A DNA stretch of 64,000 nt from an uncultured Candidatus Saccharibacteria bacterium (GTDB lineage Bacteria; Patescibacteriota; Minisyncoccia; Phycocordibacterales; DATDWN01). The DNA is taken from the NCBI GenBank assembly GCA_964426735.1, contig CAYRRP010000003.1, positions 77,378-141,377 of the forward strand. Direction: 5' to 3'. The notes under the pieces are model-generated. The model made no database searches. It saw only the letters and a list, made by a program, of their open reading frames with translations, and had not been told where the DNA came from. Of this stretch, positions 2,844 through 60,363 are shown one piece after another; the stretch's first letter is position 1, and each line of letters starts with the position of its first letter. The translations under genes were made by a program, and so were the position numbers.

Positions 2844-2915
2844 ACATCGATTTTTTCCGACCTTTAAGGGTCAGGCCTCCCGCAATCGTAGTTAGGAGGC
2901 TATTATAACATACAT

Positions 2916-2974
2916 AACCGAAGAACCGAAGAACCGAAGAACCGAAGAACCGAAGAACCGAAGAACCGATGAAC
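2916..2974. repeat. Tandem 8-bp repeat (AACCGAAG), 6 exact copies plus a degenerate seventh
   Basis: Direct reading: aaccgaag repeated from 2916 and ending aaccgatgaac. It produces the spurious ORF 2791..2979 (FGSSVLRFFGSSVLRF). Confidence 0.95.
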
Positions 2975-3050
2975 TGCACAGTGCAGACTGAGAGCTTCAG
3001 ATGAAGCTTTCTGCAAAGAATAGTACACCCCCCTCAAAATTTGTCAAGTG

Positions 3051-3671
3051 CTACATCCCTACTCCAGTAATCATCTTAAAAAAGAAACTTACCACCGGGG
3101 AAAGGAACTGAGACAAGAAAAACACAAAGAAAATGAGGATTGTGATACTGTAAGCTTCCATAGTAGTTCTGATATGTGCCATGTTGTAAGGCAAAAAGGC
3201 AAAAAGTATCTTTGATCCATCAAGTGGTGGGATAGGTACCAGGTTAAAACACGCAAGAACAAGGTTAATTATCGTGATAGTAGCTGATATATGAATAAAA
3301 TCACTCGATAGCGTCAAAATGCCAGTAGATGCAAGTCGGATAATAAGCCCGAAAAACACTGCAATACATATATTAATGAATGGCCCCGCAAAAGCGACAA
3401 TAGCTTCGCCCCATTTTTGATTCCTCAAGTTATAGGGATTAAACGGCACAGGCTTTGCCCAGCCGATGATGAATCCCCCAAGCTGATATGACAAGAATGG
3501 GAGAATCACAGACCCAAACCACTCTAAATGCTTAAGTGGATTGAGAGTGAGGCGTCCCTGGAAGCGAGCTGTATTGTCCCCTTGCAGATACGCTGCATAC
3601 CCATGAGCTACTTCATGGGCAACCACTGAAAACATTAGTATAAGTAATGAAAAGATAAAATCGATTTGCAT
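3051..3671 (-). CDS. Site-2 protease family (peptidase M50) membrane metalloprotease
   Basis: 206 aa and polytopic. It carries HEVAHG (HExxH) in the first TM region and NLVPIPPLDGSK (NxxPxxxLDG) later. Confidence 0.85.
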   Translation of the reverse strand: MQIDFIFSLLILMFSVVAHEVAHGYAAYLQGDNTARFQGRLTLNPLKHLEWFGSVILPFLSYQLGGFIIGWAKPVPFNPYNLRNQKWGEAIVAFAGPFINICIAVFFGLIIRLASTGILTLSSDFIHISATITIINLVLACFNLVPIPPLDGSKILFAFLPYNMAHIRTTMEAYSITILIFFVFFLSQFLSPVVSFFFKMITGVGM

Positions 3672-3711
3672 ATTGGTAAAATTATGCTACCATATTCCCA
3701 CATACAAATAT

Positions 3712-3954
3712 ATGGCTAAAGCATGTCCAATAACTAAAAAGAGTTCTCAGCTCCAGGGCGGATACTCAAACCGAACTCGTGCAACCAAGTTCAACCCAAC
3801 TGGTATCGTACGAAAATACGCAAATCTTCAGAAAAAGAAGATCTATATTCCTGAACTCAAAAAGAGTATCACTATGGAGCTCTCTACTCGAGCGATCAAG
3901 ACTATGCAGAAGAATGGCGTGTATGCGACCCTCAAAAAAGCTAACTTGGTGTAG
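3712..3954 (+). CDS. rpmB: 50S ribosomal protein L28
   Basis: MAKACPITKKSSQLQGGYSNRTRATKFNP...LQKKKIYIPE is L28-like. I prefer the in-frame ATG 3712 over the TTG at 3673 used by the track. Confidence 0.85.
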   Translation: MAKACPITKKSSQLQGGYSNRTRATKFNPTGIVRKYANLQKKKIYIPELKKSITMELSTRAIKTMQKNGVYATLKKANLV

Positions 3955-3968
3955 CAAATAACGGCTCT

Positions 3969-4081
3969 GGTCTTTTTCTCGCATCTCATCTTCTAAAATT
4001 GTAAAAATAATTCTCACCTGCGCACTCAGGCAGGTTCAAATTATTTTTAAATTTTATAAGCGACCTGCGCGAAAAATCCTC
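3969..4081. repeat. Imperfect-palindrome intergenic element (same subfamily as 46215-46320, opposite orientation)
   Basis: The reverse complement aligns with 46215-46320. Shared blocks are TTTCGC..AGGTCGCTTAT.AAATTT.AAAATA and AATTT.AGAAGATGAGAT. Confidence 0.5.
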
Positions 4082-4555: not shown

Positions 4556-5431
4556 CTACTTTCTTATAAATCTTTTTCCATCTGACTCAAACACAATCGT
4601 CCCCTCATCCATCGTCACTAAAATCTCCACGTTGTTACTTTTTAAGGTCTCAAGTGTGGCTTGTTTTGGATGTCCGTATGAATTATCTTTTCCAGCAGAA
4701 ATAATCGCAACCTCCGGACTGACTGCTTTTACAAACTCATCTCCTGTTGATGTGTCTGAACCATGATGCGCCACCTTGAGTATATCGGCATCTACATACT
4801 CTTTATATTGGCTTACAATATACTGCTCTATATTTTTTGTCGTATCACCTGTCAACATAATAGACGTATCTTTATACACAAGTCGTGCAACAAGAGAACC
4901 TTCGTTATGTGACACATCTTCGACATCTCTATCAGGGAAGATAATATCAATATATGCACCTCCTCCAAGCAAAATCTTTTGCCCTGTTCGCCCAATCAAC
5001 ACAGGAATCTCTTGTTCTACAAGAATACGCTTAAATTCTTGATATATTGGATTATTGTCAGCTTTCACACCAGGCTCAAGGACTGCTTCAACATCGTACC
5101 GCGACAGAAGCGGTATAAAACCTTCAAAATGATCCCTATCAGGATTAGTTACGATAATCATGTCTATACTTCTATCAATCAGTGGCATTTGTGTAGCAAC
5201 TTCAGAGACAAGCGCACTGCCTGGTCCACCATCAATCACAACCTGATTGCCTGTCGGTGACTCAATAAAAATAGCATCACCTTGTCCTACATCAAGAAAT
5301 GCAACTCGAAGTGGACGTTCTCGTGTTTGAAATACAAAAAATAATACTGCAATTACACACACAAAAAGTGTAAAGAGTGTATATATTTTCCAATAGGTAT
5401 GGATATTTTCTTTAATCCAGTTTTTATTCAT
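4556..5431 (-). CDS. Stand-alone ComEC/Rec2-type metallo-beta-lactamase domain protein with an N-terminal TM anchor
   Basis: 291 aa. It carries VAFLDVGQGDAIFIESPTGNQVVIDGG, TNPDRDHFEGF and KVAHHGS, as in the C-terminal MBL module of ComEC. Confidence 0.8.
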   Translation of the reverse strand: MNKNWIKENIHTYWKIYTLFTLFVCVIAVLFFVFQTRERPLRVAFLDVGQGDAIFIESPTGNQVVIDGGPGSALVSEVATQMPLIDRSIDMIIVTNPDRDHFEGFIPLLSRYDVEAVLEPGVKADNNPIYQEFKRILVEQEIPVLIGRTGQKILLGGGAYIDIIFPDRDVEDVSHNEGSLVARLVYKDTSIMLTGDTTKNIEQYIVSQYKEYVDADILKVAHHGSDTSTGDEFVKAVSPEVAIISAGKDNSYGHPKQATLETLKSNNVEILVTMDEGTIVFESDGKRFIRK

Positions 5432-5577
5432 AGCTATGATATAGTATAACAGTTCAATTAAATTACGGAATGAATCCTGTTAGAAATCACGGAAATCAAT
5501 ATAACGGGAAATAATATATTATTAGTTTAACTTTATAGGAAACATAAACCACTTTATGATTTCCTATTTCTAATGAG

Positions 5578-6171
5578 ATGAAAACATTTGAAGAAATGAA
5601 ATTTAATATCGGCGAGCTTATCGGTATTTCTACCGACTCAGTTACCGAACACCTCAAGCTCTACGCTGGATATGTAAAACATGCCAACCTTATCATTTCT
5701 AAAATCGAAGAAATGAGTAAAGATTCAGAAACAAATGCATATGCACTTGGCGAGCTTCAACGACGTTTTGGTTTTGAATTTGATGGTATGAGAAATCACG
5801 AATATTATTTCAAATCACTCGTTGGTGGTGCAACAGCAATCACCGAAGGTGGCGCGCTTCATACTGCAATCGTTGAAGAATTCGGTTCGTTTGATGCATG
5901 GTTTGCACGTTTTAAAGCAGTAGCACTCACTCGTGGTATTGGCTGGGCAATGCTCTACTACGATAAAACAACTGGACGACTTTTAAATGCATGGGTAGAC
6001 GAACAACACCTCGGACATCTCACCGGACTCTCACCTATTCTTGCGCTTGATGTATGGGAACATGCATTTGTACCTGACTACAAAGCATCTGGGAAAAAAG
6101 CATACGTTGAAGATTTTTTCAAAAATCTCAATTGGTCTGTGATTGAAGAAAATTTCAAAAACGCACAATAG
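5578..6171 (+). CDS. Fe/Mn superoxide dismutase family protein (divergent N-terminus)
   Basis: DVWEHAF and MRNHEYYF ligand motifs are present. Only one His lies in the usual HHxKHH region. Confidence 0.8.
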   Translation: MKTFEEMKFNIGELIGISTDSVTEHLKLYAGYVKHANLIISKIEEMSKDSETNAYALGELQRRFGFEFDGMRNHEYYFKSLVGGATAITEGGALHTAIVEEFGSFDAWFARFKAVALTRGIGWAMLYYDKTTGRLLNAWVDEQHLGHLTGLSPILALDVWEHAFVPDYKASGKKAYVEDFFKNLNWSVIEENFKNAQ

Positions 6172-6473
6172 TTGACTTGTGGCGTGTTTATATATAGTCT
6201 CTACTATAGACTATGCAGGATTTTCATTTTTACAACATCTTGCTCGAGTTTATGTTGAGAGGACCGGTAAATGTCGCAGCACCTTGTACACCTGTGGTCG
6301 ACCCTTTCTCGACTATCCTCGAGGATGCAGTCTCCGCAGTAAATACGTGCATCCAAAAAACCCCTCTTAACAAACAAGAAAAACAACATAACACATCCCG
6401 TCGACGAGCATTACGCGAAAGTCGAGGGAGGGTTTACAGAAAACTCTGACACATGATGTGTTGGAGTTTTTTC
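6172..6473 (+). ncRNA. Candidate ~270-nt RNA of unknown family (TAG-TTGACT promoter to intrinsic terminator)
   Basis: TTGACT 6172-6177 lies directly after the SOD stop, with -10 candidates TATAGT/TAGTCT at 6193-6200. A GC-richer structured interior ends at a strand-specific terminator. Confidence 0.35.
6444..6473 (+). terminator. Intrinsic terminator, + strand specific
   Basis: CUCUGACAC-augau-GUGUUGGAG is a 9-bp stem with two G.U pairs that would be C.A mismatches on the other strand. It is followed by UUUUUUCUU. Confidence 0.75.
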
Positions 6474-6520
6474 TTGCATATAGAAAATATTTTGATAGTG
6501 TGTAACAAGGAGTCACTACG

Positions 6521-6754
6521 ATGAAAGATAACGGTACTGAAGACTTAGAGATGTTCCCTGAAGATCTCGAGTCAGATATTTTCTCAATTATGGGCTACTT
6601 AGCTCAGGAGCTATCGCCACACACCACGCCTGAAGGATTGGTTGAGAATTGTGCACGCGCAACAGGTGTCAGCCCACACTTTGTTCGCGAACTTCTTGTG
6701 GATTGCAGACGTGAATTTTTTAGCAAACTGGTTGTAAAAACACAAGCACCTTAA
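6521..6754 (+). CDS. Hypothetical small acidic protein
   Basis: 77 aa. A canonical AAGGAG lies 8 nt upstream of the ATG. No recognisable domain. Confidence 0.55.
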   Translation: MKDNGTEDLEMFPEDLESDIFSIMGYLAQELSPHTTPEGLVENCARATGVSPHFVRELLVDCRREFFSKLVVKTQAP

Positions 6755-8307
6755 TATCCCACAACCGAATCATCCCCTGAGCGTGGCTCCGCCACACTCA
6801 GGTTTTGTTTTTTATGAAAACGATAGAGAATGAAACCAAAAACTACATAACATACAACTAACCAAAACACAGGAATGTATGGTACATGAATATTTGCAAA
6901 CGGAAGTTTTGAAACACTTTCCGCAATAAATATATCCCACGAGAGAAGAAGATATGTTGGTATTCCTGGAATCAATCCCAAAAAACGTGAGACGAAGCCA
7001 GCTATCGCCGTACAGAAACCGAGAAGCATGGTCAGTGGTACAAATGGAAGTACGACAAAGTTTGCAGGAAATGCAAACACTCCAAAATTTCCAGACATGT
7101 ACACAATATATGGAAGCACAGAAAACTGAGCTCCCAGTGTGGTTGCAGACAATTCCCTTAGTCCATATTTTTCAGTAATAAAAGAAATATGTTTTAAAAC
7201 AATCGGTGCAACATACATCACACCAATAGTTGCTAACACAGATAGATGGAATGATGGATCATATAACAATATAAATGGATTCCACATAACCATCCCCCAT
7301 ACCGCAAGCAGTAGTGCACGTGACACATTGTACGTCTTATGGAATTGCTTCCCTAAAAGCGCAATACTCGCCATAATACCTGCGCGCACTGCTGAAGCTC
7401 CACTCCCTGCCATCAATACAAAAAATATAACACCAAAAAGTGATGCTCCAAATGCAAAACGTACTGACACATATTTCATTACCACCAAAATACTTTCAGC
7501 AACAACTGTAATGTTATACCCTGACAATACGATAATATGCGAAAGTCCTGCCGTCCTAAACTGATCTGTAATAGTTTTTGGTAATGCATCAGTCCCCAAC
7601 AAAATTCCCGCCAAAAGCCCTGCTTCCGGCTCAGGAACCACATTTCTGATTGACTCTACAAATCGACGCTTTAAACCAAAAAGTATCGTAAGGATACTCT
7701 TGCCCTCTTCTCCTATTTTCTTAATTGATGCAAAAGAGAGTGTGTGCGTAATAGAGTCTTTAAATAGATACATTTGATAATCAAACATTCTTCCATCATC
7801 CGCCTCGATGCGCCCAGGCACACGAAGTGTCCCCGTAGCCACGACATAATCACCGTACGAAAATTCTGGAAATGCATGTGTACTTAAAAGAACACGAGTA
7901 TCGACTTGTTTAGTGGTGCTCCCAAAAGAAACTTTATCTACACGAAGCATGACTTTCTGCTTTTCTCCATCGGAGACCGGCTCACGCACCACCACTCCAT
8001 GAAGGGCTATATTTTTTGATTCTTGTGTAGGTAGATTTTTTATATCAGGATAGGAAATCATAAACACACGCAGCTGACCGACACACAACCCAATAAAAAA
8101 TATAATCAAAAGATGGGAAACTTTTCGGACATCTTCTGTCTTGGAAAATTTTGCATACACACCAAGTACACCCGCACACAAGAAACACGCTACACACAAA
8201 GCAACAGAGAGATGTATGAATGAAACAGCAACCCCTACCAAACTGGAAATAAAAAACAGTAACATACTGTTACCGTTTCTTAAACTCACTGATAATATTC
8301 TGCTCAT
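6751..8307 (-). CDS. comEC: ComEC/Rec2 DNA-uptake channel (OB/DUF4131-like N-terminus plus polytopic competence domain, no MBL domain)
   Basis: 518 aa. It has an N-terminal TM pair, then a soluble OB-like segment (HGVVVREPV...YVVATGTLRVP), then about 8 TM helices with LLGTDALP...FRTAGLSHIIVLSGYNI. The start may instead be the internal Met at 8265, which would remove the overlap with rnhA. Confidence 0.85.
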   Translation of the reverse strand: MSRILSVSLRNGNSMLLFFISSLVGVAVSFIHLSVALCVACFLCAGVLGVYAKFSKTEDVRKVSHLLIIFFIGLCVGQLRVFMISYPDIKNLPTQESKNIALHGVVVREPVSDGEKQKVMLRVDKVSFGSTTKQVDTRVLLSTHAFPEFSYGDYVVATGTLRVPGRIEADDGRMFDYQMYLFKDSITHTLSFASIKKIGEEGKSILTILFGLKRRFVESIRNVVPEPEAGLLAGILLGTDALPKTITDQFRTAGLSHIIVLSGYNITVVAESILVVMKYVSVRFAFGASLFGVIFFVLMAGSGASAVRAGIMASIALLGKQFHKTYNVSRALLLAVWGMVMWNPFILLYDPSFHLSVLATIGVMYVAPIVLKHISFITEKYGLRELSATTLGAQFSVLPYIVYMSGNFGVFAFPANFVVLPFVPLTMLLGFCTAIAGFVSRFLGLIPGIPTYLLLSWDIFIAESVSKLPFANIHVPYIPVFWLVVCYVVFGFILYRFHKKQNLSVAEPRSGDDSVVGY

Positions 8308-8962
8308 CCTCTGTGCTCACTGATTTTTTGAATAACGCACCTGACACACCGTTTACACGCGCTTTACACTCGTCCCAAGTTCTGTGTACCTCAACTACTC
8401 CTTTGACACAACTGACATATGAATATGCGGGGTGTGATTTTTTTGACGCACTCTTTTTTTCTTTAGACTCGATTGAACTTTCAACCTGCTCCACATCGAC
8501 ATCATACTGGTCGAGACTTCCTTCATATAGTTCCACAGGATTGTTATCTGCATATGAGGTAGCGATCACATCACATCGTTCATTTGCAGGCACACCAGCA
8601 TGCCCAGAAACTTTTCGAAACAACACTTCACGAGACGTGATTACCTGATCAAGTGCTTCCCACAAATCTCTGTTTAATACATCATCTTTAGTTTTTGTTT
8701 TCCAATTATTTTTTTTCCATCCTTCAATCCAAGAAGTGATACCTGAAATAAGGTAACTTGAATCGGTGTGCACAATCACCTCATCTGCTTTTGTGTATGT
8801 GAGTGCTTCGAGTACCGCAGTGAGTTCCATTCTGTTGTTGGTCGTATTTCCTTCACGACCACCGAGTTCGGTTACACGCTCACCTTCTACAATAACCGCA
8901 CCCCATCCCCCAAGTCCCGGATTTCCTCGTGACGAACCGTCTGTAAAAATAATTGCTTTCAT
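8270..8962 (-). CDS. rnhA: Ribonuclease HI with a C-terminal hybrid-binding (Cauli_VI-type) domain
   Basis: MKAIIFTDGSSRGNPGLGGWG...NNRMELTAVLEAL...HTDSSY...SGHAGVPANERCD carries the RNase HI D-E-D-D residues. The C-terminus YSYVSCVKGVVEVHRTWDECKARVNGVSGALFKKSVSTEDE matches the HBD pattern. The start is set at ATG 8962, because the track's longer N-terminus runs through a hairpin repeat. Confidence 0.85.
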   Translation of the reverse strand: MKAIIFTDGSSRGNPGLGGWGAVIVEGERVTELGGREGNTTNNRMELTAVLEALTYTKADEVIVHTDSSYLISGITSWIEGWKKNNWKTKTKDDVLNRDLWEALDQVITSREVLFRKVSGHAGVPANERCDVIATSYADNNPVELYEGSLDQYDVDVEQVESSIESKEKKSASKKSHPAYSYVSCVKGVVEVHRTWDECKARVNGVSGALFKKSVSTEDEQNIISEFKKR

Positions 8963-9128: not shown

Positions 9129-10874
9129 CTACTCAATCACATCCACTATTCTCAACCGCAATTCAGGGAAGTTGCGAAACATCGACTTTTCTATGTGCGC
9201 AACCAGATTGATTTTCTGTCCCGCTTCCAGTGCAACACTGTATTTACTTGGGTCAGAAAAGAATCCAATTGCTTGGATAGTTTTACCATTCTTCTTGTGA
9301 AACGTAAGTTCAAGATGATTTTTTTCTTTTCCAAATTGTTTCAAACTGCTGATTACCACATCAGAAATCAGAAAAAGAGGCTTTGGATTGTCGATACCAT
9401 ATGGTGCAAGCTTCTCGACATGAGAATAGACATTCCAATCCACATCATCGATTGATATTTCTTTATCCACCACAACAGGTACTGGTTCACTTAGTTCATT
9501 ACGAAGCGCTTTAAATGAATCATTCAATTTTTTCTCAAGCTCATGAACTGTAGCAAGTGATACCGAAAATCCACCCGCACCCGCGTGTCCACCAAAATCA
9601 AGAAATGCATCTTTTGCATGTCCCATCAACTTCATAATATTTGTATCTCCACCTGCTCGACATGAACCTTTCAAAATCACATGTCCGTCTTCATCTTTCA
9701 TTTCTTCACCTGATCGTCCCCAGAGAAATACCGGGCGATTATGTTCATCACCAAATGAATTTGCAACCAGTCCAAGAAGTGATGGTTTCCATTTTGGATT
9801 ACCGAGCACTATCACATCACCGAGCACATCTTCTCGTTCAGAAATTATTTTTTTAATTTCTTTTACCATACTTGCCACCACTCCTTTGCGTTCATTATTG
9901 ATTGTATCTAAATGTTCTGCCATGATTCCTGCTTGTACCGGATCAGTTTCTCCAAGCATCAAAAATGCATCACGAGGGACACCCATGCGAGATGCGGCAT
10001 TGATACGCGGAGTGATCATAAAACCAATATCTTCTTCAGTGAGATGTGCTTGATTCATTTTTAAAATCTGACAGAGTTTTTGAAGACCTGGTCGTGGAGA
10101 CTTTCGCATCACATACAAACCATATGATGCGAGCACGCGGTTTTCTCCACGAAGTGGCACCATGTCAGATAATGTCGCGAGACCAACCATATCAAGAAGC
10201 CACTTCTCCCACCCTTCCACCACAGAATATCTTTTTTTAAATTCTTCATGTTGCAACAGTGCACACACAACTTTCCAAATCACTCCAGACCCACATAACA
10301 TTTTTTCTGGATACTGACATCCTGGTTGTTTTGGATTTATAATTGCATATGCACTTGGAAGTACTTCGTGTGGCAAGTGGTGGTCAGTAACAATCACATT
10401 CAGACCCTCTGAGTTTGCATACTCCACTTCACTTACATCTGCAATCCCACAATCAATAGTGATCACAAGCGTCACTCCATTTTTCTTAAAGAGATCAGTT
10501 GCATCATGACTCATACCGTACCCTTCATCATTTCGATGTGGAATATAAACCTCAAAATTTTCATAACCAATTTTTTTAAAAAAATCATTCATCACCACTG
10601 CACCAGGGATACCGTCTGCATCATAATCAGAAAAGATTCCAATCCGCTCCCCTGCTTCTAGCGCCCGAAGAATTCTCTCCACCGCTTTTCCCATATCTTT
10701 CAGCAGGTAGGGATCGTGAATGTCCCGATTGAAATCAGGAGCGATAAAAAGCTCTGCATCAGCATGTTCGGTAATTCCGCGAGCATGAAGAAGTTCTTGT
10801 AATATCGGATGATACGCTTTGAGATTTTCTCTGACTGCATCCACCAGCTTCTCCCGGACAACATAGTTTTTCAT
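9129..10874 (-). CDS. recJ: Single-stranded-DNA-specific exonuclease RecJ
   Basis: 581 aa. DHH motifs are IFSDYDADG, ITIDCGI and VTDHH, with a DHHA1-like GGHAGAGG. Confidence 0.92.
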   Translation of the reverse strand: MKNYVVREKLVDAVRENLKAYHPILQELLHARGITEHADAELFIAPDFNRDIHDPYLLKDMGKAVERILRALEAGERIGIFSDYDADGIPGAVVMNDFFKKIGYENFEVYIPHRNDEGYGMSHDATDLFKKNGVTLVITIDCGIADVSEVEYANSEGLNVIVTDHHLPHEVLPSAYAIINPKQPGCQYPEKMLCGSGVIWKVVCALLQHEEFKKRYSVVEGWEKWLLDMVGLATLSDMVPLRGENRVLASYGLYVMRKSPRPGLQKLCQILKMNQAHLTEEDIGFMITPRINAASRMGVPRDAFLMLGETDPVQAGIMAEHLDTINNERKGVVASMVKEIKKIISEREDVLGDVIVLGNPKWKPSLLGLVANSFGDEHNRPVFLWGRSGEEMKDEDGHVILKGSCRAGGDTNIMKLMGHAKDAFLDFGGHAGAGGFSVSLATVHELEKKLNDSFKALRNELSEPVPVVVDKEISIDDVDWNVYSHVEKLAPYGIDNPKPLFLISDVVISSLKQFGKEKNHLELTFHKKNGKTIQAIGFFSDPSKYSVALEAGQKINLVAHIEKSMFRNFPELRLRIVDVIE

Positions 10875-13842: not shown

Positions 13843-14973
13843 TTACTTTGTCAAAGCATCAATTCCAGGCAGAGTTTCGTTGACCAAAAAGTCGAGCATT
13901 GCTCCACCTGCAGTAGATACAAACGAAAACTTATCCATCAATCCGAGCTTTTCGATGGATGCGAGTGTGTCCCCTCCTCCGACAATACTGGTCGCCTTAC
14001 TATCTGCAATAATCTGAGCAAGCTGTTCTGTCTTATCAAAAAATCCTGCTTCATAGTTCCCAAGTGGACCATTCCAAACGATCAGTGATGCTTTTTTTAC
14101 CAACTCTTCAAGATGCGCAATGGTCTTCGGCCCCACATCGCCAATATATTCATCAGCTTCTACCTGATGTGCATCCTTTAATGAAAGTGCTCCATTTTCT
14201 TTTTTAACCGTCACATCTACTGGTGCGACAAATTTTGGATTTAGCAACATATCACCGATACCAAAATCTCCCTCTGAAACAAGTGAAGTTCCCACCTCAA
14301 ACCCTTGTGTTTTATACACATTGTTTGCAAGTGCTCCCACTACTACCACATGATCTGCTTTATCCAAATATTTTTGTATCAATGGAAGTTTTGTATCAAA
14401 CTTCGCACCACCTAAGATAAAAAGAAATGGATGTGTCGGAGTAAATGCTTTCGAGAGATTTTCTACTTCATTTAAAAAGAGTGGTCCTACATATGAAGGC
14501 AAAAGCGATGGTATACCTACCACTGATGCGTGTTTTCGATGAGATACTGAAAAAGCATCGTTCACATACACATCACCATACTGAGCAAGTTTTTTTGCAA
14601 AAGATTCGTCATTTGCCTTTTCTCCTTCATCAGAACGAAGATTTTCAAGCATCACCACATCAGCGTCTTCCATATCAGCAATCATTTTAATCGTTTCAGC
14701 AGAAAAAAGATCTTTTGCAAATTGCACTTTCACAAAACCATTTAGATAATCAAACATTGGATACAAGCTCGTATTGCCTTTTGCCTCGGTATGAGCAAGA
14801 ATAATAATCTTTGCTTTCTTAAGACGAAGCATGTCGATAGTTGGAATCGCCTGATCAATACGATACGGATCAGCAACTTTCCCATCAACGATAGGTGTAT
14901 TTAAATCCAAACGAAGGAGTACGTGTTTTCCTGAAATATCTCCTGCATCTTCTATTGTCTGTAATGTTTTCAT
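13843..14973 (-). CDS. pgk: Phosphoglycerate kinase
   Basis: 376 aa. It carries RLDLNTP, NDAFSVSHRKHAS and STAGGAMLDFL. Confidence 0.95.
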   Translation of the reverse strand: MKTLQTIEDAGDISGKHVLLRLDLNTPIVDGKVADPYRIDQAIPTIDMLRLKKAKIIILAHTEAKGNTSLYPMFDYLNGFVKVQFAKDLFSAETIKMIADMEDADVVMLENLRSDEGEKANDESFAKKLAQYGDVYVNDAFSVSHRKHASVVGIPSLLPSYVGPLFLNEVENLSKAFTPTHPFLFILGGAKFDTKLPLIQKYLDKADHVVVVGALANNVYKTQGFEVGTSLVSEGDFGIGDMLLNPKFVAPVDVTVKKENGALSLKDAHQVEADEYIGDVGPKTIAHLEELVKKASLIVWNGPLGNYEAGFFDKTEQLAQIIADSKATSIVGGGDTLASIEKLGLMDKFSFVSTAGGAMLDFLVNETLPGIDALTK

Positions 14974-15053
14974 GGTAAATCAATTTTTGAGTAAAGATAC
15001 GAATTAAATACTTTTAACTTTCTTATTCGTAACTATGTGTATTATTCGTATAT

Positions 15054-15824
15054 TTATTTTATAAGGTCAACGTTATTGATAATGCCTACAAAATTTTCCA
15101 CTTTAAGAGACTCTCGACCAACCAAAAGTCCGTCAACATAACCTCTTTCGACAATTTCTCGTGCATTATCTGCTGTCACTGCGCCACCGTAGAGTACTTT
15201 TGGCAATGGAGCCATTGTGCCATACATTTCCTTAATACATTTCTGAATATATAACGACATTTCATGTACCTGGTGTGAATTCATCGCTTCTTTAGCGCCG
15301 ATAGCCCACACAGGCTCATATGCAATAACTACATCGGAAATAACACTCTTTGACACTCCCGCAAGACCTGATGCAAGCTGACTTTTAATTAACCCGAGGT
15401 ATTCTCCGTGTTCATCTCGAACTGACTCACCGATACATAATACAGGAATAAGCTTATTCTCAAGTGCTCGACTCACCTTTTTAGATACAGACGTGTCGCT
15501 TTCCCCACGAACTCGTCTTTCAGAATGCCCGATAATAACGTATGCAACTTTAAACTGAGAAAGATGTTGCGCTGAAACCTCACCTGTATATGACCCGGAT
15601 GTTTCTTCATGTATATTTTGTACACCCAACGCAACTTTTTTAGAGACCAATCCTTTAAGTTCAGAAACATATACAAATGGCGGACATACAACAACATCAG
15701 TATTTTTAGCTTTTACACTACCCTTTTTAATACCCTCAACTAACTTTTTAGCTTCCTTCGTGGTAAAAATATTCATTTTCCAATTACCAATAACAAGTTT
15801 TTTCTTTTTTAGTGCCATACGCAC
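15054..15824 (-). CDS. tpiA: Triosephosphate isomerase
   Basis: 256 aa. It carries IGNWKMN, IIGHSERR and AYEPVWAIG. Confidence 0.95.
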   Translation of the reverse strand: MRMALKKKKLVIGNWKMNIFTTKEAKKLVEGIKKGSVKAKNTDVVVCPPFVYVSELKGLVSKKVALGVQNIHEETSGSYTGEVSAQHLSQFKVAYVIIGHSERRVRGESDTSVSKKVSRALENKLIPVLCIGESVRDEHGEYLGLIKSQLASGLAGVSKSVISDVVIAYEPVWAIGAKEAMNSHQVHEMSLYIQKCIKEMYGTMAPLPKVLYGGAVTADNAREIVERGYVDGLLVGRESLKVENFVGIINNVDLIK

Positions 15825-15897
15825 ATAATATCATAAAATACATAAGCATCACGAATGGACGTCCAACAAAAAAGTAGATGAAGTGATTTTACTGATG

Positions 15898-19810: not shown

Positions 19811-19920
19811 ATAAAATTGCTTTAGGTGCGCGGCGCAAGAAGGTTTTGGAGCGAGCCTTACTTGTCGTAAGGCAAGTGGCAAAACTTGAATTGCAACAAA
19901 GCAGATGAAGTGATTTTATT
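19811..19920. repeat. Imperfect-palindrome intergenic element (subfamily with 39031-39139 and 40303-40409)
   Basis: The apex is CCTTAC-TTGTC-GTAAGG (19856-19872). The arms are AAAATTGCTTTAGGTGCGCG.. and ..CAAAGCAGATGAAGTGATTTT. It lies between pilC and the pilin genes. Confidence 0.6.
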
Positions 19921-19930
19921 GTGTTCGCGG

Positions 19931-22940: not shown

Positions 22941-23091
22941 AGGAAAGTAAAAAGTCCATAAAGTTGAAAGTCCTTAAAGTCGGAACTCAAACTTTGAATT
23001 ACATTTAGTATATCAAAAAAGTAGTTTTCTCTAGTGTAAAAATGTGTACAAGAAAAGCCGGCCTAACATCATTAAACCGGCTTTCAGATCT

Positions 23092-26693: not shown

Positions 26694-26754
26694 AGCACAA
26701 TCACTCTATAATACTTTTGTAAAAACCTCGTGTAACGAGGTTTTTACTTGCTTT

Positions 26755-26803
26755 ATTCGTAAAAATTCGTATCATTCGTATATTCGTTAATTCGTATATT
26801 TAT
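26755..26803 (+). promoter_or_regulatory. Array of five ATTCGT(A) heptamers ending in the 14-mer ATTCGTATATTTAT, upstream of tig
   Basis: ATTCGT starts at 26755, 26765, 26774, 26782 and 26790, giving spacings of 10, 9, 8 and 8. The 14-mer at 26790-26803 lies 4 nt before the ATG. Confidence 0.5.
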
Positions 26804-26807
26804 AACT

Positions 26808-27878
26808 ATGGCTAAAAAAGATTACACAAACATTGTAGTGCACAAACTCCCCCAACAAGAAGTAGAAATTACTGGTGAAATTACTGTAGAAAAAATGGAT
26901 TCGATGCGAAAAAAAGCAATCGAATCACTTAAGAAAGAAATCACTCTTCCTGGATTTCGAAAAGGTACTGCACCTGAAAACCTTGTAATACAGCAGATTG
27001 GTGAAGTGAAAATACTTGAGGAAGCAGGAGAGCTTGCACTCGGTGAAGTATATCCTGATATTCTCGAAGATGAGAAACTTGATCCTCTTGGTAAACCAGA
27101 GGTAACTATCACGAAGATTGGTGTTGGTAGTGCCCTTGGTTTTAAGATCAAAACAGCACTGATGCCTGAAGTGAAAATCGGTAATTATAAAAAAATCGCC
27201 CAGAAAGTCTATGCAAAAGAAGTAGCTGTAGAAGTCACAGATAAAGATATTGAGGACGTCATCCTCAATCTTCGAAAAAATGTTGCTCATGCAAAACTCC
27301 ATGAAGAAGGTGGATATGATGAACACGATCACTCTCACGGAGAAATCAAAGATGAAGATTTACCAGAAGTAAATGATGATTTCTTAAAACAGATTGGTGA
27401 GTTTGCATCAGTTGAAGATTTAAAAGAAAAAATAAAAGAAAATCTCCTTAAAGAAAAAACTTTTAAAGCAAAAGATAAAAAACGAACAGAAACACTTGAA
27501 GAAATTATTAATGCATCAACAATTGAAATTCCCCAGATCTTGATTGATGGAGAGCTTGATCGAATGAAAGCTCAGTTTGAGGATGATTTGGCACAATCAG
27601 GTATTACACTTACAAACTACCTCTCATACGCAAAGAAAACAGAGGACGACCTCAAGGCTGATTGGAAAGATACGGCAATCAAACGAGCAAAATCTCAAAT
27701 CATTCTTAATACTATTGCAAAAGAAGAGAGCATCACACCTGACGAAGCGATGATAAAAACGGAAATGGAAAAAATCCTCGCACACCACAAAGATGCAGAA
27801 CGTTTCCGTGTACGAATGTATGTGGAAACATTTCTCACCAATGATTTGGTGTTTAAGTTTCTTGAGGAGCAGAAATAG
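26808..27878 (+). CDS. tig: Trigger factor lacking the FKBP/PPIase domain
   Basis: 356 aa. It has the ribosome-binding signature LPGFRKGTAP and TF N- and C-domains. A short His-rich linker (HEEGGYDEHDHSHGEIKDED) sits where the PPIase domain belongs. Confidence 0.85.
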   Translation: MAKKDYTNIVVHKLPQQEVEITGEITVEKMDSMRKKAIESLKKEITLPGFRKGTAPENLVIQQIGEVKILEEAGELALGEVYPDILEDEKLDPLGKPEVTITKIGVGSALGFKIKTALMPEVKIGNYKKIAQKVYAKEVAVEVTDKDIEDVILNLRKNVAHAKLHEEGGYDEHDHSHGEIKDEDLPEVNDDFLKQIGEFASVEDLKEKIKENLLKEKTFKAKDKKRTETLEEIINASTIEIPQILIDGELDRMKAQFEDDLAQSGITLTNYLSYAKKTEDDLKADWKDTAIKRAKSQIILNTIAKEESITPDEAMIKTEMEKILAHHKDAERFRVRMYVETFLTNDLVFKFLEEQK

Positions 27879-31457: not shown

Positions 31458-31465
31458 TAGTTAAC

Positions 31466-31544
31466 AGTAGACAGTCAATAGTCTTTAGTAAAAACAAAAA
31501 ATCACCTTTCGGTGATTTTTTGTTAATAACTTCGACTGTCTACT
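31466..31544 (+). terminator. rny terminator embedded in a long imperfect palindrome
   Basis: The core is AAAAAATCACC-tttc-GGTGATTTTTT (31495-31520). The outer arms are AGTAGACAGTC (31466-31476) and GACTGTCTACT (31534-31544). The 11-mer GACTGTCTACT recurs at 2154-2164. Confidence 0.7.
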
Positions 31545-31669
31545 CATGACTTATGACTACACACTTCCTTGTCCGTCAACCCCTTGCACTCGAAAACCCT
31601 TGGTATATAATAGCTATATAGTAGATAGGGTGAGTCTTGAAAGATTACAAATTTAGTTTTACAACATCC

Positions 31670-36745: not shown

Positions 36746-36870
36746 TTGAGTAGGTACAGGAGGATTCGTAGTATAAAGTACACAATTTCCTTTGTATAAA
36801 GCCATTTTTGGAGACTTTTGGACACAAAGTCTTATACTTTGAAGCCTGTCAAAGACTGTCTCTAATACAC

Positions 36871-36891
36871 ATGTCCACAGACTTATCCACA
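36871..36891 (+). promoter_or_regulatory. DnaA-box-like sites (one consensus TTATCCACA plus an adjacent ATGTCCACA)
   Basis: TTATCCACA at 36883-36891 and ATGTCCACA at 36871-36879. A related TTGTCCCACA lies at 36936-36945. Confidence 0.4.
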
Positions 36892-37027
36892 GTTTTCAAC
36901 ATATTTTGTGTAAAACTGACTTTAATTTAAAGACTTTGTCCCACAGAATAGGGGTTTAATGGAGACAGTCCGTGATCAAATAGACAAAACTTGGCAAAAG
37001 CTAGAAAAAAGGTATGATACATATATT

Positions 37028-39018: not shown

Positions 39019-39030
39019 TTCTGCAAATAA

Positions 39031-39139
39031 GTTAAACTGCTTCAGATGCTAGGCGCGAGAGAATTTGTGAGTGAGTTGTACTTGTCGTACGGTGAGCGAA
39101 CAAATTTGAATCGCAACAACGCAGATGGAGTAATTTAAC
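39031..39139. repeat. Imperfect-palindrome intergenic element (close copy of 40303-40409)
   Basis: GTTAAACTGCTTCAGATGCTAGGCGCGAGAG...TTGTAC-TTGTC-GTACGG...CAACGCAGATGGAGTAATTTAAC. Confidence 0.7.
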
Positions 39140-39497
39140 TTATTTAACAACAAAAAACCGCCCAAGGTGGCGTCATTTGTCGCAAAGACGGCTCACGGGC
39201 GGCTAAAGAAGTATTTCCCAGCAAGAATAAGGATTTGATAAATATCTCAATCTTAAAATATATAGTAGATAGTGTAGATATGTATATCTCTTGTCCTATC
39301 GAACCAAGAAACCTTCATGGGGGAGAACCTGCAGATTCTCAAATGTACAAACGCACAACTTTATGTGTAAAGAACTTTAAACGACAGAATTGTTTGTTTC
39401 TTTTTTGATGAAACTCTCGATCCTGTTCTGGAGTAACTATATCAGACAGATAAAAGTCATGTAAAGGACTATGCTGTGGATAACTTTGTCTTATTAA

Positions 39498-40268: not shown

Positions 40269-40302
40269 TACTAAAAGATATTACCACACCTTGAATGAAG
40301 AA

Positions 40303-40409
40303 GTTAAATTGCTCCAGATGCTAGGCGCGAGAAAATTTATGAGTGAACCGTACTTGTAGTACGGTGAATGAATAAATTTGAATCGTAACAACGCAGATGG
40401 AGTAATTTA
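40303..40409. repeat. Imperfect-palindrome intergenic element (close copy of 39031-39139)
   Basis: It is in the same orientation as 39031-39139. I counted 12 mismatches over about 107 aligned nt by hand. Its right end overlaps the stop codon of the recombinase gene. Confidence 0.7.
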
Positions 40410-44109: not shown

Positions 44110-44165
44110 CCACAAACCCATCAGAGCTACTGTAAATACGAAAAGCATTTCTGACTTGATAGACT

Positions 44166-44201
44166 TTGGACTTTATAGACTTGATGGACTAAAATAGACA
44201 T
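44166..44201 (+). promoter_or_regulatory. Promoter TTGGAC-18-TAAAAT placed 6 nt before the comM ATG
   Basis: TTGGAC 44166-44171, TAAAAT 44190-44195, ATG 44202. It shares the 17-mer ATTTCTGACTTGATAG with the upstream promoter region. Confidence 0.55.
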
Positions 44202-46214: not shown

Positions 46215-46320
46215 CACAATTTCGCCAAGGTCGCTTATGAAATTTTAAAATATTCCTCACCTTACAACGAGTAAGGTTCGTCATATTTTAAAATTTCAGA
46301 AGATGAGATTGGTGAAATTT
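46215..46320. repeat. Imperfect-palindrome intergenic element
   Basis: The arms include a 16-bp perfect TGAAATTTTAAAATAT pairing. The apex is CCTTAC-AACGA-GTAAGG. It abuts the stop of the M23 peptidase gene. Confidence 0.55.
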
Positions 46321-57175: not shown

Positions 57176-57607
57176 ATGAGATTCCAAGTACCACAATTTA
57201 TTGAAATAGAAGATAAAATCGTAGGACCACTGACGCTTAAGCAGTTTTTGTATCTCGCTGGATCAGTAGGTATGTCAATTATTGCATATCGTTTTCTTCC
57301 ACTTATTGTAGCGATTATTGTGATTGCATGTGTTGGTTCACTTGGTATAGCTCTCGCATTTTTTAAGTACAATAACAAACCTTTTATCGACCTTCTTGAA
57401 TCAGGTGTACAGTATTACTTGGGAGAAAAACTATACATTTGGAAAAAAAGGGAGCGGGTTGTTGAAAAACAAAATACTGCTGATAAAAATCCTGCTCAAG
57501 TATATGTACCTCGTTTATCTGACAGTAAACTTAAAGAGCTCACCTGGAGCTTAGATATTAAAGAAAATCAAAACCCAGTTACTCGGGAAGAAAGTAGATT
57601 AAAGTAA
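57176..57607 (+). CDS. PrgI-family (VirB3-like) small membrane protein
   Basis: MRFQVPQFIEIEDKIVGPLTLKQFLYLAGSVG followed by two TM helices matches the PrgI pattern. The start is set at ATG 57176. Confidence 0.7.
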   Translation: MRFQVPQFIEIEDKIVGPLTLKQFLYLAGSVGMSIIAYRFLPLIVAIIVIACVGSLGIALAFFKYNNKPFIDLLESGVQYYLGEKLYIWKKRERVVEKQNTADKNPAQVYVPRLSDSKLKELTWSLDIKENQNPVTREESRLK

Positions 57608-57679
57608 AAGGATTACAGAATAATTCTTATTCATTAATCCTACTACCTTAATCATTAATCAATCTGGTATACTATTCTT

Positions 57680-58318
57680 ATGGCTATTCCTTCTAAAGCA
57701 ACACAAGATTTTGTACCTATCAAAGAAATACGTGATGGGGTAGTACTGCTCAAAGATAATTCTATGCGTGCCGTACTCCTCGCATCTTCTTTAAACTTTT
57801 CTCTTAAATCAGAAGATGAGCGAAAAGGTATTTTATACCAATTTCAAGATTTTCTTAACTCACTTGATTTTCCACTTCAAATCTTTATCCAGTCACGAAG
57901 ACTTGATATTAGACCATATATTGCTCTTCTTGAAGGTCGGTATAAAGAACAGATGAATGATTTGATGAAAATTCAAACTCAAGAATACATTGAATTTATT
58001 AAAAAGTTTACTGAGTCGACCAATATTATGACAAAAAGTTTCTTTGTGGTTGTTCCATACACTCCCGCACTGATCCAAGGAAAAGGTATAGATCCTACAA
58101 GTTTTTTTGGCAAGAAAGATGCGGATGATGCTGTAAAAAAACGCATGGTGAATTTTGAAGAAAACAAGACTCAGCTCGAACAAAGAATGGCAATCGTGGA
58201 ACAAGGACTTGTACGTTGTGGAATCAGAGTGGCACGTCTTGGAACAGAAGAAGTGGTAGAATTATTTTATAAAATATTTAATCCAGGAGAAACAGAAAAA
58301 CCAATCCAAGTGAGCTAA
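57680..58318 (+). CDS. Stand-alone VirB4 N-terminal-region homolog (first part of a split Gram-positive-type VirB4)
   Basis: TQDFVPIKEIRDGVVLLKDNSMRAVLLASSLNFSLKSEDERKGILYQFQDFLNSL resembles the extreme N-terminus of PrgJ/Tn916-Orf16-type VirB4 proteins. This is from my recollection and was not searched. Confidence 0.6.
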   Translation: MAIPSKATQDFVPIKEIRDGVVLLKDNSMRAVLLASSLNFSLKSEDERKGILYQFQDFLNSLDFPLQIFIQSRRLDIRPYIALLEGRYKEQMNDLMKIQTQEYIEFIKKFTESTNIMTKSFFVVVPYTPALIQGKGIDPTSFFGKKDADDAVKKRMVNFEENKTQLEQRMAIVEQGLVRCGIRVARLGTEEVVELFYKIFNPGETEKPIQVS

Positions 58319-58440
58319 CTATACGAATATGCGAATGAAAAACTTACGAATAACCACGAATACAGAAAATCAAAATGTTTTTTATTCGTATACATTCGTA
58401 GATTCGAATTATTTGTATATTCGTATATTTATTTAAAACT
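58319..58440. repeat. Imperfect palindrome built from 4 ACGAAT and 4 ATTCG(T) units, ending in the 14-mer ATTCGTATATTTAT
   Basis: TATACGAATAT...CTTACGAAT...ACGAATA faces TATTCGTATACATTCGTAGATTCGAAT...ATATTCGTATA. The 14-mer lies at 58419-58432, 8 nt before the ATG. Confidence 0.7.
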
Positions 58441-60246
58441 ATGGGACTATTTGATTTTTTACAAAAAAAAGAAGAGCCGTCAATATCTTCTATCATCCCT
58501 CAGGAGATTTACCAAGCAGGTACACTTGAACTGCAGGATATTATCGCACCAAGTGCGTTAAAAATTTCACCAAAAGAAATAAATCTTGGGGAAAAGGTGC
58601 TTCGTAGTTTTTTTGTAATCTCTTATCCTCGATTTCTTGGAGAAAACTGGTTCTCTCCAATCATTAACCTCGATAAAGTATTTGATATTGCTATTTTTGT
58701 ACACCCTATTGAAACATCCGATGTACTTCGTACATTTCAAAAAAAAGTAGCTGAGGTACAAAGTCAGATTATGGAACGTGAGAGTAGGGGACAAGTACGA
58801 AACCCGATGCTTGATACCGCATATCAAGATCTTGAAAACCTCCGTGACCAACTTCAACAAGCACAAGAGAAACTTTTTGATGTTGGTTTATATATCACCA
58901 TGTATGGAGATAATGAAGCGGAGCTTGATAAGATGGAATCAGAAATAAAATCTATTCTTGAATCAAAGCTTGTATATGTAAAACCAGCTCTCTTCCAACA
59001 AGAACAAGCGTTTAAAACAGTACTTCCTTTAGGAACTGATCAGCTTGAGGTTCATAGTAAGCTAAATTCTTCTCCACTCTCAAGCCTTTTTCCTTTCATA
59101 TCTTTCGACCTTACCTCAGATAAAGGTATCTTATATGGGATTAACCGACACAACTCATCACTTGTATTATTTGACCGTTTTTCACTTGAAAACTATAACT
59201 CAATTACTTTTGCAAAATCAGGTTCGGGTAAATCATATGCAACAAAACTCGAAATCCTTCGAACACTTATGTTTGATACATCAGTAATGGTTATCGACCC
59301 TGAAAATGAGTACGAGTACATGGCTGAAGCAGTAGGGGGAAGATACTTTAAAATATCGTTAAACTCAGAGCATCATATAAACCCTTTTGATCTTCCTATA
59401 CCCAATGAAGATGAATCTGCTGCGAGTGTTCTTCGAAGCAATATTATAAACTTGGTAGGGCTTTTCCGTATTATGCTTGGGGGGCTCACACCAGAAGAAG
59501 ATGCGATTGTAGATCGAGCTATCACCGAAACATACGCGCTCAAGGACATAACTCCGGACTCAGACTTCAAAAATATCGAGCCGCCACTTCTTTCTGATTT
59601 TGAAATGGTACTCTCTGGTATGGAAGGTGGAGAATCTCTTGCTCAACGTCTTACAAAATATACCAAAGGTACATGGGCTGGTTTTATCAACCGACCAACC
59701 AACATTGATATTAATAAAAAATTCATCGTCTTCTCAGTGCGAGATATGGAAGACGAGCTTAAGCCGATTGCAATGTATATTATTATGCATTATATCTGGG
59801 CTGCAATCAGAAAGGAACTAAAAAAACGTCTTCTTGTTATTGATGAAGCGTGGTGGATGATGAAATCTGAAGATACTGCTTCATTCCTTTTGTCGTTGGC
59901 AAAACGAGGACGAAAATACTTCCTCGGACTAGCGACAATCACTCAAGACGTGGATGACTTCCTTAAATCTCCGTACGGAATGCCGATTATTACAAACTCT
60001 TCTATACAAATACTTCTCAAACAATCACCGACTTCAATGGATAAACTCCAGCAAACATTTAACCTCACTGATGAAGAAAAATATCTACTCCTTGAGTCTG
60101 ATGTAGGGGAGGGAATCTTCTTTGCAGGACTCAAACACGTAGCAATCAAGATTATTGCTTCATATACTGAAGACCAGATCATCACTTCAGATCCATCTCA
60201 GATCCTTGCTATCAAAAAAGCAAAAAACGACTTACTTTCTTCTTGA
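58441..60246 (+). CDS. virB4: VirB4/TrbE-family T4SS ATPase
   Basis: 601 aa. It has Walker A FAKSGSGKSY, Walker B LLVIDEAWWMM, and a conserved pre-ATPase region (FFVISYPRFL...). Confidence 0.88.
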   Translation: MGLFDFLQKKEEPSISSIIPQEIYQAGTLELQDIIAPSALKISPKEINLGEKVLRSFFVISYPRFLGENWFSPIINLDKVFDIAIFVHPIETSDVLRTFQKKVAEVQSQIMERESRGQVRNPMLDTAYQDLENLRDQLQQAQEKLFDVGLYITMYGDNEAELDKMESEIKSILESKLVYVKPALFQQEQAFKTVLPLGTDQLEVHSKLNSSPLSSLFPFISFDLTSDKGILYGINRHNSSLVLFDRFSLENYNSITFAKSGSGKSYATKLEILRTLMFDTSVMVIDPENEYEYMAEAVGGRYFKISLNSEHHINPFDLPIPNEDESAASVLRSNIINLVGLFRIMLGGLTPEEDAIVDRAITETYALKDITPDSDFKNIEPPLLSDFEMVLSGMEGGESLAQRLTKYTKGTWAGFINRPTNIDINKKFIVFSVRDMEDELKPIAMYIIMHYIWAAIRKELKKRLLVIDEAWWMMKSEDTASFLLSLAKRGRKYFLGLATITQDVDDFLKSPYGMPIITNSSIQILLKQSPTSMDKLQQTFNLTDEEKYLLLESDVGEGIFFAGLKHVAIKIIASYTEDQIITSDPSQILAIKKAKNDLLSS

Positions 60247-60363
60247 GATACGAGGCGAGAGATTTGAGATAAGAGATATGAAAGATACACCGCTTTTTTC
60301 TCATATCCCTTCGTAAGGTTCAACCTTTACTCAACCACGTAACTTCTATACCATTATCTATAT

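Follow-up and report, generated by a model that had tools for sequence, protein, structure and literature searches.

A two-gene VirB4 and a probable recent insertion of a palindromic repeat between its genes in a type IV secretion cluster of a Paceibacteria bacterium

The closest described relatives of the locus analysed here are the type IV secretion system (T4SS) gene clusters of Patescibacteria, also known as the Candidate Phyla Radiation (CPR). In a 2025 survey, in which TrsD was detected with a CONJScan/MacSyFinder profile, this protein was the commonest T4SS component of the group and was described as 'remotely homologous' to the N-terminal portion of VirB4 (PMC12102498). Among its 2,272 homologues in Patescibacteria 1,664 adjoined virB4, one TrsD was listed as essential in Southlakia, and the order VirB3-like gene, TrsD-like gene, virB4 was already published there (PMC12102498). 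The present work concerns a 64-kb stretch of DNA (hereafter the window) in which two neighbouring open reading frames (ORFs), encoding parts of one VirB4, are separated by a 122-nt palindrome. The locus is very probably a chromosomal T4SS cluster of a Paceibacteria (CPR/Patescibacteria) bacterium, and with considerable confidence we explain it as a whole by an ancient two-gene VirB4 that has recently received a copy of a dispersed palindrome in its gap. The genes lie in the order prgI, A, B, with A and B on the same strand and 122 nt apart:

57176..57607, + strand: PrgI/VirB3-like gene (Pfam PrgI, E = 2.7e-9)
57680..58318, + strand: ORF A, 212 aa, TrsD-like, by sequence the detached N-terminal module of VirB4 (NCBIfam, fused homologues)
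58319..58440, + strand: 122-nt imperfect palindrome without ORF (fold, homologous copies elsewhere, empty junction in the closest relatives)
58441..60246, + strand: ORF B, 601 aa, VirB4/TrsE-type ATPase (NCBIfam, Pfam, PDB, alignment with pGO1 TrsE)

Below, A and B denote these two ORFs, and 58319-58440 is referred to as the element or the spacer. The probable true start of prgI is MRFQVPQF at 57176, which is conserved in relatives; the mechanically called ORF starts at 57131. The locus was compared with 86 related loci (given L numbers below), 84 of which hold both A and B. The spacer is unlikely to be an assembly artefact, since an identical 122-nt copy is present in a separately assembled Logan contig (L001). 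The sequence-only reading that this work follows up had given the coordinates and sizes of the two ORFs (212 and 601 aa) and of the spacer (122 nt) correctly.

Judged from their sequences, A represents the N-terminal module of VirB4, whereas the remainder of the N-domain and the P-loop domain are in B. On the 752-position NCBIfam profile of CD1110-type VirB4, A covers positions 2-117 (E = 3.8e-6) and B positions 179-733. With 376.6 bits (E = 2.4e-112) against NF045971 conju_CD1110, B exceeds the curated cut-off of 325 and belongs to the VirB4 family; it is also matched by Pfam P-loop_TraG (97.5 bits, cut-off 25.8), AAA_10 and DUF87. Its nucleotide-binding motifs, Walker A (AKSGSGKS) and Walker B (LLVIDEAW), both align with PDB entry 4ag5, the crystallised C-terminal domain of a Thermoanaerobacter VirB4 (E = 1.2e-40). 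Residues 253-549 of B match residues 446-735 of TrwK, which leaves approximately 445 N-terminal TrwK residues to be compared with 212 + 252 residues here. A complete one-piece VirB4 N-terminal domain was not found in B: the first ~180 positions of the CD1110 profile are absent from it and are supplied by A.

An exhaustive profile search with A detected a fused 797-aa relative, P0217, whose residues 1-214 correspond to A (43% identity) and whose residues 225-791 correspond to B (56% identity). Fused relatives of 775-807 aa make up more than 115 clusters, many of them labelled Candidatus Colwellbacteria. The alignment of both ORFs to full-length VirB4, which the sequence-only reading had proposed as a check, placed A and then B collinearly on fused relatives of approximately 790 aa. 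Its view that the 212-aa product resembles the N-terminal region of VirB4, and that the 601-aa product consists of the following region and the ATPase, was thereby upheld; of the two outcomes it had named as fatal, a 212-aa protein lacking VirB4 homology or a complete N-terminal domain in the 601-aa protein, neither occurred.

The A family is large, with at least 7965 homologues, and the best 120 of these are all stand-alone proteins of approximately 212 aa with 72-100% identity. Precomputed annotation assigns A homologues to Pfam PF26593 (TraC-like), and about 90 columns of A are invariant across 31 sequences. Other NCBIfam matches of A were VirB4_plasma, the VirB4 of mycoplasma integrative and conjugative elements (E = 1.7e-12), and TrsD. 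Against the TrsD model NF041427 A scored 23.7 bits, compared to a cut-off of 200 (E = 3.5e-5 over model positions 14-142), which indicates homology and not subfamily membership. By its position A does correspond to TrsD/TraD: it is a protein in the range of approximately 200-230 aa, encoded between a VirB3-like gene and virB4, and homologous to the N-terminus of VirB4. A Pfam scan of A gave no family (the Pfam set scanned apparently did not contain PF26593), and the homology of A was therefore settled by NCBIfam, by the fused homologues and by a fold search, in which TrwK ranked first for a predicted model of A. A phmmer search of A against PDB sequences returned chance matches only.

B is about as long as short monoderm VirB4 proteins, its best PDB relative is merely a C-terminal domain construct, and comparison of the A profile with pGO1 TrsD by hhalign was not significant (E = 0.11). 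Each of these could be read as favouring a different assignment, namely that A is a paralogue or an unrelated accessory protein and that B is by itself a complete short VirB4. Taking into account that A and B occupy successive parts of the CD1110 profile, that the fused relatives are collinear with the pair and contain no duplicated region, and that TrwK was the top match for the model of A, such an assignment is very unlikely.

The two-gene form of VirB4 is ancient, under purifying selection and already described, as follows from the related loci, from relatives with an empty junction, from Bacillota plasmids and from the published survey (PMC12102498). A stop codon of A and a separate start of B at the same point of the protein were found in all 84 Paceibacteria loci that hold both genes. 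In 65 of these loci A and B are no more than 25 nt apart, for the most part 1-10 nt; 13 loci have gaps of 26-130 nt, and six have gaps of more than 400 nt. In the closest relatives without the spacer, L003, L082, L083, L084, L085 and L086, whose A proteins are 92-96% identical to that of the window, the gaps are 12, 10, 10, 5, 20 and 5 nt, respectively. An uninterrupted A-B gene was not found in close relatives lacking the element, where B starts 5-20 nt past the stop codon of A. Outside the group, a Geobacillus plasmid has the order PrgI, A-like protein, DUF87 ATPase, and the staphylococcal plasmid pGO1 has the order TrsC, TrsD, TrsE. The alignment of B with pGO1 TrsE begins at residue 6 of B against residue 5 of TrsE, which shows that the break point itself is common to both.

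Joining of A and B by recoding (frameshift or read-through) was considered and rejected. Relative to A, each of the three reading frames is used by B (in 38, 29 and 17 loci), and conserved recoding is thereby ruled out.

The sequence-only reading had proposed that a once continuous virB4 was cut by insertion of the palindrome, and that the distal part acquired a promoter through the same event. In favour of this, a one-piece VirB4 is indeed tiled by A and B, and the spacer is a lineage-specific insert. Examination of the orthologous loci for fused or split forms and for the presence of the spacer did not bear this out: the same residues are separated without any spacer in all closest relatives and in the 65 loci with tight gaps, the split recurs in Bacillota plasmids, each of the two ORFs has a conserved stop and a conserved start of its own, and the combination of TrsD and VirB4 was already on record (PMC12102498). 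To rescue the proposal by secondary precise excisions, these would have to be postulated across at least 65 species, which is implausible. We regard an origin of the split by this insertion as extremely unlikely.

Some B orthologues depart from the common form in other ways. In three relatives (L003 at 4652-8446, L023 and L034) the VirB4 ATPase gene contains an intein with a LAGLIDADG homing endonuclease (Intein_splicing, LAGLIDADG_3); the intein-bearing proteins of L023 and L034 are 1264-1267 aa long, and the A protein of L003 is 92% identical to that of the window. In L036 (4627-5166) the B orthologue is seemingly frameshifted near its start, reflecting either a pseudogene or an assembly error.

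The spacer itself folds as a single long hairpin, which extends from the stop codon of A to approximately 10 nt before the ATG of B. The calculated free energy is -34.4 kcal/mol (z = -6.9), and none of 200 shuffled sequences folded as well. In the predicted structure the left arm, with the ACGAAT units, lies at approximately 58316-58370, the loop at 58371-58376, the right arm, with the ATTCGT units, at 58377-58431 and an unpaired tail at 58432-58440. There are three exact ACGAAT units (58323, 58346, 58356) and three exact ATTCGT units (58384, 58394, 58419), plus three units with one mismatch (GCGAAT at 58332, ATTCGA at 58403, ATTTGT at 58412), so that the eight units counted earlier were about right. 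An Rfam search of the spacer and of the other intergenic repeats of the window returned no family, four tRNAs only. As an intrinsic terminator the hairpin was rejected, as no terminator-like site was found on the + strand and there is no U-tract.

Clusters of ATTCGT/ACGAAT units occur at only three places in the 64 kb, the A-B junction and two others, and each contains an exact copy of the same 14-mer:

58419..58432, + strand: 14-mer ATTCGTATATTTAT, conserved as the right-hand end of the element (exact copies in the window: three)
26751..26807, + strand: solo right arm of the element before tig (nhmmer model positions 64-116, E = 0.004)
14974..15057, - strand: degenerate flipped palindromic copy between tpiA and pgk (unit cluster, alignment with the element)

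The three copies of ATTCGTATATTTAT (15044, 26790 and 58419) compare with 0.05 expected, and the sequence is also conserved in the element copies of L085, L086 and L082. At the A-B junction it ends 8 nt before the ATG of B and contains a TATATT that ends 11 nt before this ATG. The recurrence of the 14-mer before tig had been noticed earlier and was confirmed: the copy at 26790 ends 4 nt before ORF 26808-27878, which encodes trigger factor (Pfam Trigger_N and Trigger_C). The recurrence is accounted for if the 14-mer forms the conserved end of a small palindromic element with dispersed copies. In front of tig five direct ATTCGT units with a spacing of 8-10 bp, together with ATTCGTATATTTAT, lie between a terminator-like hairpin (26719-26747) and the ATG at 26808. 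The degenerate copy is flanked by tpiA (15054-15824, - strand) and pgk (13843-14973, - strand), and its 14-mer, present as the reverse complement, overlaps the stop codon (TAA) of tpiA. This copy was not significant by nhmmer, and its fold is weak (z = -0.8).

These observations and the comparison of closely related loci indicate, on sequence grounds, that the spacer is very probably a recently inserted copy of a palindrome resembling miniature inverted-repeat transposable elements (MITEs), repetitive extragenic palindromes (REPs) or Correia elements, and that the gap between A and B existed before it arrived. The A-B junction is empty of the element in L003, L082, L084 and L086. With an nhmmer model built from three copies, clearly homologous copies of approximately 120 nt were detected at a different junction, between a 221-aa gene and prgI, in L085 and L086 (E ~1e-34); in the window that junction measures 16 nt. 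A further match lies after dnaN in L085 (E = 3e-9), and L082 retains the right terminus alone, before prgI. Folding of the three full copies gave z values of -6.9, -7.6 and -9.2, and an outer stem of 18 bp is invariant among them. In L002 the flanking coding DNA is approximately 96-97% identical to that of the window, but the junction holds a 97-nt spacer of ATCAAA/TTTGAT units without meaningful similarity to the element.

The element thus has the properties of the MITE/REP/Correia-like class: it is shorter than 300 nt, has no ORF, has terminal inverted repeats, occurs at non-orthologous sites and is polymorphic for presence and absence. The idea of an inserted repeat, which the sequence-only reading had put forward, therefore stands. 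That the ends of the element abut a stop and a start codon is expected from survivorship, since intergenic gaps here are only a few nucleotides long. The 20-nt A-B junction of L085 (10640-10659), ACATACGAATATGCAAAAAT, resembles the left terminus joined to the last bases of the element. L084 and L085 encode an identical A protein, yet differ in the gap, with 5 nt (ACATC, 10640-10644) in the former and the 20-nt ACATACGAATATGCAAAAAT in the latter; the A-B junction is thus a hot spot for insertions and deletions even within a species-level group.

We propose the following course of events. In this lineage VirB4 is made as two polypeptides, the 212-aa TrsD-like protein and the 601-aa ATPase, encoded directly after the VirB3-like prgI, and these would presumably assemble non-covalently into a VirB4-like unit. 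In an ancestor of this genome the normal stop-start gap of 5-10 nt would have been invaded by an ORF-less palindrome of approximately 120 nt with ACGAAT/ATTCGT arms. The element would most likely be co-transcribed with the operon and fold as a long hairpin. B could be expressed by read-through, perhaps with processing of the transcript, or else the conserved right end of the element (TATATT/TATTTA near the ATG) could act as a weak promoter directed outward.

Several points weigh against this explanation. The physical interaction of A and B is a presumption, and expression of B across a hairpin of -34 kcal/mol is assumed. Neither the window nor the loci yielded a transposase or another mobility gene, and there is no clear target-site duplication. 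TAA is present at both ends in several copies; as TAA is also a stop codon and the DNA is AT-rich, a TAA...TAA duplication is possible but not demonstrable. The element family was recovered solely in the window and three close relatives, and a metagenome scan for the terminus TATTCGTATATTTATTTAA gave 50 matches, all attributable to chance (a single unit, no arms). Slippage or gene conversion could also have enlarged a short seed into the array at this very site, and the ACATACGAATATGCAAAAAT of L085 could be such a seed.

How B is expressed relates to the gene starts of the window in general. Shine-Dalgarno cores show no enrichment, being present at 7 of 58 starts compared to 11% of control ATGs. 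Of the 58 genes, 31 have a -10-like hexamer whose end lies 4-10 nt upstream of the start codon, compared to 19% of controls (p = 6e-9). The extended -10 sequence TGnTAnnnT lies 2-12 nt before 14 of the 58 starts, where fewer than one would be expected, and A is among these genes:

57665..57673, + strand: extended -10-like box TGGTATACT of the TGnTAnnnT class, 6 nt before the ATG of A

The box suggests that A has its own promoter of the leaderless type. Taken together, the Shine-Dalgarno, hexamer and extended -10 values suggest that the mRNAs of the host are mostly leaderless. A second match to the extended -10 pattern, TGGTAGAAT at 58254-58262, lies within the invariant EEV[IV]ELFY codons of A; in relatives with a tight junction it would stand approximately 60 nt upstream of B, and it may be either an internal promoter or a coincidence.

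It is possible, though doubtful, that the element or its right arm is a portable expression cassette, in which the phased ATTCGT array and TATATTTAT would serve as promoter/operator for B, for tig and, in relatives, for prgI. The downstream gene would then be transcribed into a leaderless or short-leader mRNA, and the element would be kept by selection for this role, not as a selfish repeat. The conserved end GTATATTTAT lies 3-8 nt before a downstream ATG in five copies, the array is the sole DNA between the terminator-like hairpin and the start codon of tig, and the L082 remnant has kept just the right end beside prgI. The units are 8-10 bp apart, about one helical turn, and the -10-like boxes and absent Shine-Dalgarno enrichment of this genome would agree with such a function. 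In contrast, the 14-mer has no TGnTAnnnT of the kind seen at 14 starts including that of A, and a scan for sigma-70-type promoters found no consensus match on the + strand of the spacer. No TGNTANNNT is present in the spacer or before tig, only bare TATATT/TATTTA. In the case of B the TATATT ends outside the usual 4-10 nt before the ATG, the tpiA-pgk copy is flipped so that its 14-mer faces the 3' end of tpiA, and relatives express B across a gap of 5-10 nt without any such cassette. Moreover, neither the left arm nor the hairpin would be necessary for a promoter. A mobile element with a weak outward-facing promoter, as known for Correia elements, would reconcile the facts on both sides.

Junctions of this gene cluster have also been occupied by other sequences. 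ORF-less imperfect palindromes built of other short units, unrelated to the element, are present at the A-B junction in L002, L004, L022, L034, L044 and L054, and in L030 and L061 the junction spacers are not composed of short repeated units, yet form hairpin folds (z = -2.5 and -10.4). In six genomes a gene of the 23S_rRNA_IVP family (IVP; PF05635, E = 1e-16 to 1e-39) lies between inverted unit arrays exactly at the A-B junction:

L006, 4628-5091: IVP cassette at the A-B junction
L012, 4640-5060: IVP cassette at the A-B junction
L018, 4640-5086: IVP cassette at the A-B junction
L060, 1498-1978: IVP cassette at the A-B junction
L067, 4640-5105: IVP cassette at the A-B junction
L081, 4646-5118: IVP cassette at the A-B junction

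At neighbouring junctions of the cluster (~2250-3930) IVP cassettes were found in at least ten genomes (L008, L030, L034, L036, L038, L042, L043, L048, L060 and L067). Significant flanking inverted repeats accompany 16 of 18 IVP genes, and their arms consist of short tandem units specific for the given element. IVP ORFs and probable intervening sequences (IVSs) of the RNase III type have been reported in CPR rRNA genes; in the literature searched no description of IVP cassettes between protein genes was found. In the window the gap after B (60247-60363) is 117 nt long, compared to 20-24 nt in close relatives, and contains a palindrome of GAGAT units. This palindrome resembles the left arm and start codon of the IVP cassette of L006, and is therefore probably an internally deleted cassette.

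From this pattern the spacer could be viewed as an ORF-less relative of IVS-like cassettes, whose stem would be cut from the transcript by RNase III, separating the mRNAs of A and B. The occupation of the same and neighbouring junctions by IVP genes with inverted arrays, the flanking repeats of nearly all IVP genes, the ORF-less palindromes of other units at the A-B junction, the probable deleted cassette behind B and the RNase III-cleaved IVSs with IVP genes in CPR rRNA would all fit such a relationship. Against it, no ORF matching PF05635 was found in the spacer, the window or close relatives. A tblastn search with IVP proteins was likewise negative in the window and close relatives, where a weak match at window positions 1251-1400 does not represent an IVP ORF. 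None of the IVP cassettes found has ACGAAT arms, and the likeness between spacer and cassettes is one of architecture, not of sequence. On balance we consider this relationship rather unlikely. A wider version would hold that stop-start junctions of Paceibacteria are recurrently colonised by one IVS-like class of inverted arrays with or without an IVP gene, of which the window element would be a non-autonomous member. The cassettes would be transcribed with the operon and excised or cleaved at their stems by RNase III, leaving downstream mRNAs that such Shine-Dalgarno-poor organisms with leaderless-type starts could translate, and the IVP protein would spread or maintain the cassettes. As an explanation of these junctions this is unlikely. 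We retain an ancient two-gene VirB4 with a recently inserted dispersed palindrome as the best explanation.

For annotation these results mean that the 212-aa ORF should be named a TrsD-like VirB4 N-terminal module and that it would be wrong to mark the pair as a virB4 that is disrupted or has become a pseudogene. A false call of a broken gene would be misleading, as these bacteria probably depend to an important degree on the T4SS in their epibiotic life. Of most interest among the remaining results is that palindromes and IVP cassettes have colonised stop-start junctions recurrently. In a tiny CPR genome, and in an operon that is both essential and origin-proximal, gaps of a few nucleotides have been repeatedly invaded by hairpin-forming repeats, and in sister genomes the same gaps have been invaded by cassettes encoding a protein that is otherwise known from the intervening sequences of rRNA. 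Were such cassettes processed from mRNA as they are from rRNA, the rRNA IVSs would be linked to a wider class of mobile intergenic elements, and the uncharacterised IVP family would acquire a testable role.

The surroundings of the cluster are conserved. In the 20-kb loci L082, L084 and L085 the T4SS cluster is syntenic, with yidC, rnpA, rpmH, dnaA and dnaN on one side and ksgA and a UvrD-type helicase gene on the other, which shows it to be origin-proximal, as reported for Patescibacteria.

The intergenic DNA of this small genome is rich in other repeats. A separate family of approximately 100 nt is located 3' of genes (19820-19930, 39019-39140 and 40300-40406, with a weaker trace at 15860-15897); its copies share ...GCTAGGCGCGAGA...GTACTTGT.GTACGG...GCAGATGRAGT... 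and have no Rfam match, and they could represent either a structured RNA or a further palindromic element. Further hairpin or unit-array sites were seen at ~2690-2750, 4010-4070 and 46260-46320, at 22941-22990, 36806-36958 and 44150-44201, and at 31458-31560. Near 2920-2980 there are seven tandem copies of AACCGAAG. Additional intergenic families include units of the GACTTT/TAGAC type before several genes, and inverted TAGACAGTC arrays enclose a terminator.

Among known systems the closest are the pairs of TrsD/TraD and TrsE, which comprise the pGO1/pSK41-type MPF-FATA systems and the Patescibacteria TrsD-VirB4 pairs. The gene order, the VirB3-like neighbour, the size of the small protein (~210-230 aa) and that of the VirB4 (600-670 aa) are the same. 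Unlike pGO1 and pSK41, the present cluster is chromosomal and belongs to an epibiont-type lineage, not to a conjugative plasmid, and unlike these plasmids and the reported TrsD-VirB4 pairs it has a 122-nt palindrome between the two genes. Like the Patescibacteria TrsD-VirB4 clusters of the survey it adjoins dnaA, dnaN, rnpA and ksgA (PMC12102498).

With one-piece VirB4/TraC/TrwK proteins of approximately 790-830 aa, including the fused Colwellbacteria-type forms, A and B are together collinear over the full length, and the Walker A and B motifs are in B. The difference is that two polypeptides are encoded here, and that, where the fused form has a short linker (P0217 residues 215-224), the pair has instead the C-terminal end of A together with approximately 25 N-terminal residues of B.

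The element resembles the Correia, MITE, REP, BIME and ERIC repeats in its length (these being ~100-150 nt), lack of an ORF, inverted-repeat arms, restriction of its dispersed copies to intergenic DNA and presence or absence between close strains. Correia repeat-enclosed elements of Neisseria can carry promoters in their ends, and their hairpins are substrates of RNase III. As with Correia-type elements, the element is co-oriented with operons and is thus likely to be co-transcribed as a hairpin. It differs from them in that its arms are arrays of a 6-nt unit with a period of approximately 9 bp, its copies are few, no TA duplication or cognate transposase was identified, and its host is a CPR bacterium with leaderless-type starts.

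In comparison with 23S rRNA intervening sequences carrying the PF05635 four-helix-bundle ORF, the element lies between protein genes instead of within helices of rRNA, its copy in the window lacks an ORF, and no similarity of its arms to those of IVP cassettes was shown. It shares with them the long stem formed from its two ends, and in sister genomes an IVP ORF is present at the very same junction.

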